Source: an uncultured Clostridium sp.
GTDB lineage: Bacteria; Bacillota; Clostridia; TANB77; CAG-508
DNA: 64,000 nucleotides
Direction of reading: 5' to 3'
NCBI GenBank assembly: GCA_947367845.1
Contig: CANBES010000002.1
Location: 5,162 to 69,161 of the forward strand
In this document: piece after piece, positions 42,906 to 45,404 of the stretch
How the letters are laid out: every line of letters starts with the position of its first letter
Numbering within the stretch: the first letter of the stretch is position 1
Notes under the pieces: model-generated
The model's input: the letters and a program-made list of their open reading frames with translations, nothing else
What the model was told of the DNA's origin: nothing
Database searches by the model: none
Translations under genes and position numbers: made by a program

Positions 42906-45404
42906 CTATAAAATATCTGGATTATCTTGTAAAATTTTATTAACGATGTCTTCTTCTAAGCTAAAAGGTACAACATACCCACCTAAATTTTGTGCTTTGT
43001 CAGATAAAACTGGATTTTTATCATCTACATAGATTTTGGCTTTTCCTTTTCCGTTTTTTGCTTCTTGCACCAAGTTTGAAACTGGTGAATTTCCGTCAAA
43101 TGCCATAACTACTGAACTTCTTCTTTCAAAAATTTCATAGTTAAAGCTTTTATATATTCCCATTTCATCACTTTCAATAGAAATTCTAACCCCGTCTAAA
43201 TCTTCTTTTAATAATTTATCTGATTCTTCTTCTGATACCATTTTAGGAATTATTGCATTTATTTCGAATTTCTTATTTAATTTGTTGCTTATGTTAATTA
43301 TTTCCTTTTCGTAACCAGTCATTTTATGTCCAATTACAAAATATGCTTTATCTGTACTTATTTTTTTAATTAATTCTTCTAAAATCAATTTACCTTCTGG
43401 TGTAACTTCTGTATTTCTACCTTTTTTGTTAAAACTTCCACCTGCAATAATAATTGGAATTTTGTTTACTGGAAGTTGCTTTATTTTCTTTCTCAATTTG
43501 GTTTCTGCTTCTATGTTTTTGTTTATTCTCATAGGTTGATTATTTGCCTTTCCTTTTTCAATGTTCTCTTTTTCTAGTTGTGCTAAAGCTTCTGTTATTG
43601 TTCTTCCATTTAAAAACTTTTCAAATTCTGCTGATTTCTTTTTAAAATATATCTCTCTATCTTCAATAATTTCATCTTCCACTTTTCTCATTTTTTGAAA
43701 ATCTGCGTCTGTAAGTCCTAATAAATTTTGAAGGGCTAACTGTTCATCAATTGTATCAACACCATAAAATCCACATCCATCTGTCCCTTGAACACATTTT
43801 ATATCATTTTTCAAATATGTTTTTATAGGGTGTAATTTTAAATTACTTAGATTATTTAATCTTACATTTGATGTTAATTGGAACTCTAATACTACATTTC
43901 CTTCTTTTAACTCTTTTATTAACTTTTTTCCTTCTTTTGATTTTAAATCTGCTGTATATAACCCATGACCTAATCTCACTTTTGGCATCTCTTGACCTGG
44001 TTTTAATGCTTCTTTTATACATTCAATTGATTTTGCAACATTATCTCTTAAACTATCATTTTCTCCTGCGTGTATTCTTATTGTAAAATCTTTGTCTACA
44101 TCTGCAACATATTCTACTAGTTCTTTTATTGCAGGTTTCAAATCTGATATATCATTTATTTCTTCTCCCATAAAATCACTACCTACAACATATGGGCTTT
44201 TTGCAACTGTTTTTAGAACATCTAGGTTTTCTCTTAAATAATTTCCACCTATCATTTGGCTTTGAATAATTGTAAGTGGTATTCTTCTCATTGCTGCTAA
44301 TAAACGAATTTTTACACCTGTTTCTTTTTCTATATAAGGCATTATTTGGTGCACTTCTTCAATTAGCTGTATTGCAGGACCATTTGCTTTTACTAGGTCT
44401 GAATCTGCTATTTCTGTATAATCGATTTTTTGTTTTTGATATTCTCTTGCTATCCACAAATATTTGTCTTGTCTTAATGTTATATTTTTCAATTCTGGAT
44501 TTTCTATATCTTTTATCATTAATTTTAATTTTCTCTTAACACCATCTTTTGGTATTTTATTTATCTTCTCTATGTCTAATTCTATTTTTTCTTTTGATGG
44601 TTTTCCTTTTGTAAAAACATATCTGTAAATATATAGCTTTTCAAGGTTTGTGAAAACTGCTTGCCCATCTTTTAATATTGATAAGCTATTTCTTACTTTA
44701 GCAATATTGTATGATGCATTTTTTAAATTATTTAATATGAAGTCTGCAAAGTTTATAAAAGTATTGTCATCTATTTTTCTTACTTTATATTTTCCTTCTA
44801 AACCGCAATCTTTGTATTTATCTTCAACTTCTGCTCTTTGTTTTAATATTTTTTCTTCTTGCTCTTCACTCATTCTTAATTTCAATTTTTTAATATAATA
44901 CAAAGGGTATTTTAATTGATGTTTTATTCCCAATGCTATTAGTACATCTGGTGATAAATTTGCATTCATATGTGTATGTAAATCTGTTCTGAATTTTGAT
45001 TTTTTCAATATGTTTGATTTAACAATTGTCTTTTTTAAATCTAGATTATAGTTTTTTGTTTGTGACATCAATGTCTTTGTAATAGCTGGAATTTTAGCTT
45101 TTATTTCCGTTGTTCCATCTTCATATATATTTGCTAGCTTTATTCCTCCTAGTCTTAATATATACACAATTTCATTATCTCCATTAATACTTGCAGGAAT
45201 TGTTCCTGTAAGTATTTTCATATCATTTTCATCTTTTACAGTCTCAACATCACATAATTTTGCTAGGTTTGTAATTAAATTTCCTGTTCCATGGTTTGGT
45301 GTCTCTATAATGTATCTTAGTTCATCTTCGTTTTCACGGTATATGCTTACTTTTATATCTTTTTCTTTATCTAAATAGAATTTGCTTAAACGTATCTTTT
45401 CCAT
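42906..45404 (-). CDS. three-part protein: unknown N-domain, adenosine/AMP-deaminase-fold metallohydrolase, SLOG/LOG-like Rossmannoid C-domain
   Basis: Start moved to ATG 45404 (RBS AAGGGAGGT; MEKIRLSKFYLD...). Deaminase-fold signatures: TDLHTHMNA (HxH), IRIHAGEN, VQGTDGCGFYG. C-terminal domain: IPIIIAGGSFNKKG...YFVIGHKMTGYEKEII...NAIIPKMV...VVMAFDGNSPVSNLVQEA. The 60 extra residues in the track are repeat translation. Confidence 0.55.
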   Translation of the reverse strand: MEKIRLSKFYLDKEKDIKVSIYRENEDELRYIIETPNHGTGNLITNLAKLCDVETVKDENDMKILTGTIPASINGDNEIVYILRLGGIKLANIYEDGTTEIKAKIPAITKTLMSQTKNYNLDLKKTIVKSNILKKSKFRTDLHTHMNANLSPDVLIALGIKHQLKYPLYYIKKLKLRMSEEQEEKILKQRAEVEDKYKDCGLEGKYKVRKIDDNTFINFADFILNNLKNASYNIAKVRNSLSILKDGQAVFTNLEKLYIYRYVFTKGKPSKEKIELDIEKINKIPKDGVKRKLKLMIKDIENPELKNITLRQDKYLWIAREYQKQKIDYTEIADSDLVKANGPAIQLIEEVHQIMPYIEKETGVKIRLLAAMRRIPLTIIQSQMIGGNYLRENLDVLKTVAKSPYVVGSDFMGEEINDISDLKPAIKELVEYVADVDKDFTIRIHAGENDSLRDNVAKSIECIKEALKPGQEMPKVRLGHGLYTADLKSKEGKKLIKELKEGNVVLEFQLTSNVRLNNLSNLKLHPIKTYLKNDIKCVQGTDGCGFYGVDTIDEQLALQNLLGLTDADFQKMRKVEDEIIEDREIYFKKKSAEFEKFLNGRTITEALAQLEKENIEKGKANNQPMRINKNIEAETKLRKKIKQLPVNKIPIIIAGGSFNKKGRNTEVTPEGKLILEELIKKISTDKAYFVIGHKMTGYEKEIINISNKLNKKFEINAIIPKMVSEEESDKLLKEDLDGVRISIESDEMGIYKSFNYEIFERRSSVVMAFDGNSPVSNLVQEAKNGKGKAKIYVDDKNPVLSDKAQNLGGYVVPFSLEEDIVNKILQDNPDIL

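Follow-up and report, generated by a model that had tools for sequence, protein, structure and literature searches.

The 64,000-nucleotide stretch analysed here (the window; contig CANBES010000002.1 of assembly GCA_947367845.1, an uncultured Clostridium sp. of the CAG-508 lineage) carries on its minus strand a gene for an 832-amino-acid protein that joins a barrel of the adenosine deaminase (ADA) superfamily to a C-terminal domain of the SLOG fold, and which is called ADA-SLOG in the following. The open frame covers 42906..45584; the ATG at 45404 was taken as the start. The gene is present in a single copy in the host genome (100% self-match) and is flanked by spoIIIAH (45612-46283) and rny (41232-42779), coordinates that agree with the position between the spoIIIA operon and rny given in an initial annotation made from the letters and open reading frames (ORFs) alone. 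The features of the gene and its product are:

42906..45404, minus strand: complete coding sequence of ADA-SLOG, 832 amino acids plus stop (ORF list, translation)
45410..45415, minus strand: ribosome binding site GGGAGG, 5 nt before the ATG (read from the sequence)
45452..45480, minus strand: promoter-like TTGCAA-17-TACAAT with an extended TG (consensus scan, pattern match only)
45000..45404, minus strand: N-terminal domain, residues 1-135, mostly beta strands with two helices (AlphaFold2 model)
43611..44999, minus strand: ADA/AMP-deaminase-family (beta/alpha)8 barrel, residues ~136-598 (PF00962, Foldseek, invariant motifs)
43470..43610, minus strand: long helical linker, residues ~599-645, poorly conserved (AlphaFold2 helices 566-598 and 603-619)
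42909..43469, minus strand: C-terminal SLOG-fold Rossmannoid domain, residues ~646-832 (AlphaFold2, Foldseek, invariant residues)

Because the gene has its own promoter-like site and rny possesses a near-consensus promoter (likewise a pattern match only) right after the ADA-SLOG stop codon, the transcription unit looks monocistronic. The full-length AlphaFold2 model, calculated with 55 homologues as input, had a predicted local distance difference test score (pLDDT) of 91 and a predicted template modelling score of 0.90. Pfam assigned A_deaminase (PF00962) with an E value of 3e-20 and 73 bits against a cut-off of 27; nothing else was significant. Pfam, the AlphaFold2 models and Foldseek together bore out the architecture that the initial annotation had read from the translation, an N-terminal domain without a known relative followed by an ADA fold and a SLOG domain. 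The motifs quoted for it were all located: DLHTHMNA (141-148), IRIHAGEN (442-449) and GTDGCG (540-545) in the barrel, IIIAGGS (651-657), VIGHKMTGYEKE (689-700), AIIP (716-719) and AFDGNSPVSNLVQEA (768-782) in the C-terminal domain.

The barrel was nearest by sequence and structure to the classical nucleoside ADAs (e.g. PDB 2pgf, 6n9m, 6n91, 1a4l). Foldseek aligned the full-length model with ADA and ADAL at E ~1e-10 and a template modelling (TM) score on the target of 0.66-0.75, and sequence matches to ADA entries of the PDB reached E values down to 2e-8. The conservation alignment comprised 55 sequences in two clades that share 25-28% identity. Invariant in both clades were T140-D-L-H143-x-H145, H445-A-G-E448, H480 and D542-G543, of which H143, H145, H445, E448, H480 and D542 align with the zinc ligands, the catalytic Glu and His and the metal Asp of solved ADAs. 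Judged by these residues, the predicted active site is catalytically complete, and with the Pfam score, the barrel fold and the metal and catalytic residues all present the protein belongs to the PF00962 superfamily. ADA-SLOG thus shares with classical ADA the (beta/alpha)8 fold, the metal ligands (HxH, the His of HAGE, Asp) and the catalytic Glu and His, but the identity is only ~15%, a helical insertion of ~100 residues follows barrel strand 1 in the AlphaFold2 model, and the N-terminal and SLOG domains extend the chain to 832 residues versus ~340.

Two substrate-contacting positions differ from the classical enzymes. In the mouse ADA structure, Asp19 contacts the ribose 5'-OH and Asp296 the purine N7. 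The equivalent of Asp19 (in the HLDG motif of mouse and Vibrio ADA) is Asn147 in ADA-SLOG and Ala in clade 2, the sister clade, so no acidic residue would face a possible 5'-phosphate; this loss is compatible with a 5'-phosphorylated substrate without proving one. Asp296 closes the SDD motif; its counterpart is the invariant Gly543. The TD542-G543 segment aligns with SDD, in line with the remark that GTDGCG takes the position where an acidic pair is usual. We know of no characterised ADA, ADAL or AMP deaminase (AMPD; AMP, adenosine monophosphate) with such a change. The Add equivalog models (TIGR01430 / NF006846) gave 51-57 bits against cut-offs of 216-459, and by the missed cut-offs and the absent Asp-Asp pair the sequence would not qualify as a classical Add.

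These data bear on the possibility that the protein deaminates adenosine or adenine in catabolism or salvage, its extra domains serving oligomerisation or feedback, with inosine monophosphate (IMP) formed via Hpt or inosine kinase. Such a role would agree with the closest sequences and structures, all classical nucleoside ADAs, and with the finding that ADA-SLOG is the sole PF00962 gene in the host genome and in nearly all carriers sampled. The score of 51 bits against the Add cut-off of 216, the loss of the 5'-OH-contacting Asp19 equivalent and the invariant Gly in place of the N7-contacting Asp296 speak against it, as do the purine gene profiles described below, and we consider a nucleoside or base deaminase unlikely.

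ADAL was among the best fold matches of the barrel, and like ADAL, which has an Asn two positions after HxH and keeps the Asp-Asp pair, ADA-SLOG has an Asn two positions after HxH. An auxotroph that scavenges nucleotides could be protected by a deaminase that clears modified or non-canonical adenine nucleotides (e.g. N6-methyl-AMP, as for ADAL/MAPDA); the benefit of such house-cleaning would be independent of guaB, which suits the host genome. Sanitising genes are found next to some relatives: a Ham1 ITPase gene lies directly downstream of ADA-SLOG in locus L016 and a Nudt16-like NUDIX gene occurs in L042. Yet the family has Asp-Gly where ADAL has Asp-Asp, an 832-residue sensor-coupled enzyme would be unusual for this task, and the enrichment and adjacency of guaB would be left unexplained; house-cleaning is in our view improbable. 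A gene for a deaminase of the CDA type was observed upstream of ADA-SLOG in four loci. Genome G000 (C16:16422-16995, outside the window) also has a Ham1-like gene 64% identical to that of L016. It aligns as two parts that overlap but are read in different frames, a sign of a frameshift, of decay into a pseudogene or of faulty assembly.

The C-terminal domain modelled alone reached a pLDDT of 90. Foldseek related it to TRPM MHR1/2, LOG, MoCo carrier protein and DprA with E values of 2.5e-5 to 1e-3, a probability of 1.0 and TM scores of ~0.55-0.6. Almost all of the top 50 PDB matches were SLOG members, the best being the N-terminal MHR1/2 (LSDAT) regions of TRPM8/3/2/4, and the viral matches were SLOG domains of the DprA and YpsA type. 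No well-characterised fold outside SLOG was matched, and the assignment of the C-terminal ~190 residues to SLOG is confirmed at the level of the fold. By sequence the domain is remote from the described families: the curated SLOG models of Pfam (LSDAT_prok, LSDAT_euk, LOG, YpsA) did not match the window protein, distant homologues gave sub-threshold LSDAT_prok/LSDAT_euk signals only (16-18 bits against a cut-off of 25), and the PDB profile search reached TRPM entries at non-significant E values of 0.5-1.4. Eleven residues were invariant across both clades: K648, P650, G655, S657, G692, G697, E699, G771, Q780, N784 and K803.

With LOG and PpnN (1ydh, 5its, 5zbk, 3sbx) the domain has the fold in common as well as the AMP-binding glycine loops in equivalent positions, but the PGGxGTxxE signature is not kept. 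It is replaced by AFDGNSPVSNLVQE in the window protein and by GGSxVSNxIQ in clade 2, with (D/G)G(N/G)SxVSNxxQ as the family pattern, and the segment equivalent to the signature, as mapped by sequence, contains no conserved acid. PF03641 (LOG) matched neither this domain nor any other protein of the host genome; LOG genes were present in 3 of 41 relatives. The domain appears on this evidence to lie outside the LOG phosphoribohydrolase family, and the glycine loops together with K648, S657, E699, Q780, N784 and K803 suggest a conserved ligand site rather than hydrolysis of the LOG type. Were the SLOG domain itself a LOG-like N-glycosidase, the enzyme would be bifunctional and convert AMP via IMP to hypoxanthine and ribose-5-phosphate, or via adenine to hypoxanthine. 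This would account for the LOG enzymes among the fold matches, for a C-terminal domain as conserved as the catalytic barrel and for a benefit without guaB. The replaced catalytic Glu and the lack of any LOG match in the host genome count against this version, and cleavage of IMP would conflict with the guaB linkage; we regard it as highly improbable.

A clue to the physiological role came from the purine genes of the carriers. The IMP dehydrogenase gene guaB was present in 9/10 carriers versus 19/91 non-carriers (Fisher p 3e-5) when the taxonomic family was sampled, and in 32/41 carriers versus 20/38 non-carriers (p 0.02) when the genus was, although both tests count related genomes as independent and rest on metagenome-assembled genomes (MAGs). 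Another 35 carrier species included 32 with guaB. The Hpt control in the genus showed no positive link (16/41 carriers, 19/38 non-carriers), so the guaB association does not merely reflect richer genomes. In loci L021 and L035, guaB follows ADA-SLOG in the same orientation after a gap of 139 nt; it adjoins the gene in genomes G151 and G217 and lies within 3-4 kb of it in G088 and G141; the adjacency cases represent one sub-lineage. PurH was absent in 33/35 carrier species, and five tested carriers lacked PurA and possessed GuaA. In 15/35 carrier species guaB occurred without Hpt and without PurH, which leaves ADA-SLOG as the one IMP source that can be recognised there. Among guaB-positive genomes Hpt was missing in 3/9 carriers versus 0/19 non-carriers of the family sample, and in 16/32 carriers versus 5/20 non-carriers of the genus sample. 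A perfect complementarity of Hpt and ADA-SLOG, as the 0/19 had suggested, was thus broken in the genus by the 5/20 guaB-positive genomes with neither gene, and a trend is left. For a nucleoside deaminase these profiles cut both ways: Hpt is present in about half of the guaB-positive carriers, but it is missing in the 15 species named, and all guaB-less carriers lack it as well, which would make hypoxanthine pure waste in these cells.

We propose, tentatively and with a little less than even confidence, that ADA-SLOG is a three-domain, ligand-regulated deaminase of the AMP type that supplies IMP, a metabolic function being more likely than an anti-phage one. The proposal builds on the intact gene, the ADA fold with its residues, the SLOG fold, purifying selection and the linkage to guaB; from these we infer the nucleotide substrate, the allosteric role of the SLOG domain and the physiological role. 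The lost Asp19 equivalent, the status as sole PF00962 gene, the conserved residues of the SLOG domain and the Ham1, Nudt16-like and CDA-type neighbours, which act on inosine or purine nucleotides, also speak for it. The most likely substrate of the zinc barrel would be AMP or another adenine nucleotide of similar structure with a 5'-phosphate, which deamination would turn into its inosine counterpart. Eukaryotic AMPD is allosterically controlled by ATP, GTP and phosphate, and in a comparable manner the SLOG domain may be a non-catalytic nucleotide-binding module that tunes deamination. In most carrier species, purine auxotrophs with small genomes, the IMP would pass through GuaB and GuaA to guanosine monophosphate (GMP). 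In Cryptosporidium, adenosine is turned into GMP without HXGPRT, by adenosine kinase, AMP deaminase, IMPDH and GMP synthase acting in linear series (PMC2919388), and the route suggested for the carriers would resemble this salvage.

Several observations weigh against this proposal, besides the relatedness of the genomes counted. In the model-based comparison the nearest solved structures are nucleoside deaminases, and the invariant change from Asp296 to Gly could mean a different substrate. Five guaB-positive genomes of the genus lack both Hpt and ADA-SLOG, therefore another IMP source exists. A route of adenosine deaminase plus kinase may supply IMP instead, since the survey for other IMP sources covered Hpt and PurH. 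Nine of the 41 genus carriers, the host genome and its sister included, have neither guaB nor hpt, and taken with the purifying selection on the gene these guaB-less carriers indicate that feeding GuaB is not the sole or universal role. No purF, guaB, guaA, purA or hpt was found in the host genome or in its sister (G101). The primary activity must be useful without GuaB, e.g. in the control or turnover of the adenylate pool, and the supply of IMP a frequent downstream use. In the host genome, where no IMP-using enzyme was detected, the adenylate pool would be the direct target of ADA-SLOG, which would remove adenylates or turn them over. The purine salvage enzyme that the initial annotation had offered as its alternative is therefore supported in part: guaB co-occurrence and adjacency are in its favour, but the gene is not universally syntenic with salvage genes and the host has no pathway for the product.

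The comparison with AMPD is one of role. As proposed for ADA-SLOG, AMPD forms IMP from AMP in the step that precedes IMPDH, in organisms without de novo synthesis and often without HGPRT, and both are large, multi-domain enzymes of the ADA superfamily. ADA-SLOG is not a member of AMPD by sequence, and AMPD has no SLOG regulatory domain; the sequence searches returned no AMPD, only a snail ADGF-type AMP deaminase (9nte) as a weak match. Cad1 (PDB 8z3k, 9c6f) likewise combines an ADA barrel and a Rossmannoid nucleotide-sensor domain in one chain, but its sensor is an N-terminal CARF domain whereas that of ADA-SLOG is a C-terminal SLOG domain, a CRISPR or cyclase context is missing here, and in the fold search Cad1 ranked below ordinary ADAs (ranks 40-50). 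By analogy of their logic, AMPD as an allosteric AMP deaminase and Cad1 as a sensor-fused ADA may be called the closest systems. The protein itself is outside the Add, LOG, Cad1, RdrB and ThsA families and inside the ADA superfamily and the SLOG fold superfamily. AMP deaminase is generally regarded as eukaryotic, with AMP nucleosidase or deaminases acting on nucleosides or bases as its usual bacterial counterparts. If ADA-SLOG is an AMP-type deaminase, it would provide the missing step from scavenged adenine to guanine nucleotides in purine-auxotrophic, small-genome gut Clostridia, possibly also in Saccharibacteria and other clade-2 lineages, and it would present the first SLOG domain as allosteric sensor of a core metabolic enzyme. 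With the substrate assigned, the annotation of thousands of genes would change, and models of the metabolism of uncultured gut bacteria would become better.

The protein family is large: among 8,000 candidates scored, more than 5,500 (5,522) clusters at 90% identity matched, with 774 representatives at 50% identity. Existing annotations of its members go no further than 'adenosine deaminase' or 'hypothetical'. Literature searches, which did not take in the 2015 SLOG survey, found no description of the fusion. New here are the guaB/hpt/purH profile, the guaB adjacency, the pathway-less host genome and the clade-2 neighbourhood. Clade 2 includes Clostridia, Candidatus Saccharibacteria, a gut 'Azospirillum' MAG and an Ignavibacteriales MAG. 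The gene was carried by 10/101 genomes of the taxonomic-family sample and by 41/79 genomes of the own genus, where identities were 55-78%; it was present in about half of the species of the genus and in ~9% of the other genera of the family. The order spoIIIAH-gene-rny was common only to the sister genome L001. The closest relatives examined, G053 and G007 (Rny identity 89-94%), are both without the gene, and their synteny with the window breaks off precisely where spoIIIAH terminates and where rny begins. A core syntenic housekeeping gene was rejected on these grounds. A recent horizontal acquisition had been considered from the rarity of 10/101, and the strong claim was withdrawn after the count of 41/79 in the genus. 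Identity between copies does not follow the genus boundary: G088 of the same genus has an ADA-SLOG 57% identical (Rny 79%), G013 of another genus one 73% identical (Rny 74%). The ratio of nonsynonymous to synonymous substitution rates (dN/dS), determined with the L001 orthologue, was 0.06 in each of the three domains. The picture is that of an old, strongly constrained, chromosomal gene that was often lost or moved, not that of a typical mobile defence cassette.

The initial annotation had placed the protein near the immune deaminases of RADAR and Cad1. A stand-alone effector of conflict or dormancy would sense an alarm nucleotide with its SLOG domain (ADP-ribose (ADPR), a cyclic ADPR (cADPR)-like compound or a phage- or stress-derived signal) and convert ATP/dATP to ITP/dITP, leading to an arrest as with Cad1 or RADAR. 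SLOG is the signal sensor in ThsA, the SLOG domains of TRPM2 and ThsA bind ligands of the ADPR type, and the TRPM domains were the best fold matches; Cad1, itself among the fold matches, sets the precedent for an ADA barrel gated by a fused sensor. The patchy presence, the location exactly at synteny breakpoints with absence from the two closest relatives, the disregard of copy identity for the genus boundary, a host genome without use for IMP and the occurrence of clade 2 in variable islands with PGDYG, RyR-like, NUDIX, recombinase or relaxase genes would all suit such an effector. Against this, PADLOC reported 0 families at E<=1 for the protein, RdrB included, and phage, plasmid and IMG/VR collections contained no relatives. 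No signal-making partner (cyclase, TIR, CRISPR) adjoined the gene in ~40 loci, and no CARF match was obtained with Pfam nor any CRISPR gene in the ~40 related loci. A large ATPase (RdrA) neighbour was absent from the window and the related loci, as were ThsB/TIR genes, the rest of the genome not having been scanned for TIR. In contrast to the TRPM and ThsA proteins, the C-terminal domain is fused to a deaminase and not to a channel or SIR2, it showed no significant sequence match to them, and a ThsB/TIR partner was not seen. The flanks are housekeeping genes, and identities of 55-78% across the genus at a dN/dS of 0.06 are unlike the typical fast-turnover defence genes; the positive association and operon-like adjacency with guaB also oppose an immune function.

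The claim of a signal-gated immune deaminase consequently found no support in the genomic context, the check for a defence island included. A ligand-gated purine-nucleotide deaminase is still the best description, with the role leaning to metabolism and without the immune framing. An effector of conflict or dormancy we hold to be doubtful, though conceivable for the host genome. Less likely still would be a one-gene immunity or dormancy switch, i.e. a SLOG-gated collapse of ATP/dATP on an ADPR-like, cADPR-like or stress nucleotide without a dedicated signal synthase, a third solution beside Cad1 and RADAR of which clade 2 would be the multi-gene version. If the defence reading were true, the fusion would be a new sensor-effector pairing in nucleotide-depletion immunity.

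The N-terminal domain had a pLDDT of 81-93 in the AlphaFold2 model, with strands at residues 4-10, 18-25, 28-34, 63-73, 79-85 and 88-94. Homologues of it are present in both clades, where D12 never varies and L11, N46, L47, Y81, Q115 and K117 hardly do; sequence-profile searches of Pfam and the PDB gave no significant match. The domain was also considered as a fused version of a PGDYG-domain protein encoded next to clade-2 genes. This was rejected, there being no BLAST similarity and the N-terminal domain occurring in both clades.

The clade-2 neighbourhoods contain several genes that recur in different phyla. The PGDYG-domain neighbour, with 34-50% mutual identity, was found in three lineages (L040 7414-7929, L042 7082-7750, L045 5333-5977), and a neighbour family of ~150 amino acids without a Pfam match in L043 (9900-10367), L045 (8445-8885) and L046 (8465-8926) as well as near clade-1 genes in L022, L030 and L032. 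L043 (8686-9900) and L046 (4808-5698) each encode one of two homologous proteins without a Pfam match of their own, a separate RyR-domain gene (PF02026) lies downstream in L042, and NUDIX, GNAT and radical-SAM/SPASM genes recur, at times beside recombinases or a relaxase. None of the clade-2 partner genes was present in the host genome. From its gene content the clade-2 neighbourhood may be an undescribed multi-gene nucleotide system. Two genomes, G027 (C1 and C9) and G202 (C12 and C5), possess a clade-1 gene together with a clade-2-like copy (~31% identical, 817-833 amino acids). Since both clades co-occur, they are paralogues, presumably with different roles.

Relative to L001, the synonymous divergence dS was 0.56 for ADA-SLOG and 0.22 for the adjoining rny, a 2.5-fold difference that may be due to codon bias of rny or to a different history of the deaminase gene, e.g. 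recombination. Compared to G053 and G007, ~29 kb including the spoIIIA operon are relocated (G000 C2:48060-77218; in the window from ~42900 to beyond its end), and the gene after spoIIIAH differs in each of three genomes of the genus; thus rearrangements are frequent in this genus. The 1.5-Mb genome contains ~140 copies (<=2 mismatches) of a GC-rich hairpin repeat with the core GGACGGACCTTCTTGGCA. Three of them (45513-45605) are located between spoIIIAH and ADA-SLOG, exactly at the synteny breakpoint, further ones in the window at 24317, 30274 and 30307. The repeat resembles dispersed elements of the repetitive extragenic palindromic (REP) or miniature inverted-repeat transposable element (MITE) type and may be a mediator of rearrangements. 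On the other side of rny, the gap to ymdB measures ~130 nt in G053, similarly in G007, and ~1.8 kb in the window (~39500-41100). It holds on the minus strand an ORF of 336 amino acids (39916-40926) and a short overlapping ORF (40802-41005), the N-terminus of the latter resembling a prepilin signal, and its content suggests a lineage-specific insertion.

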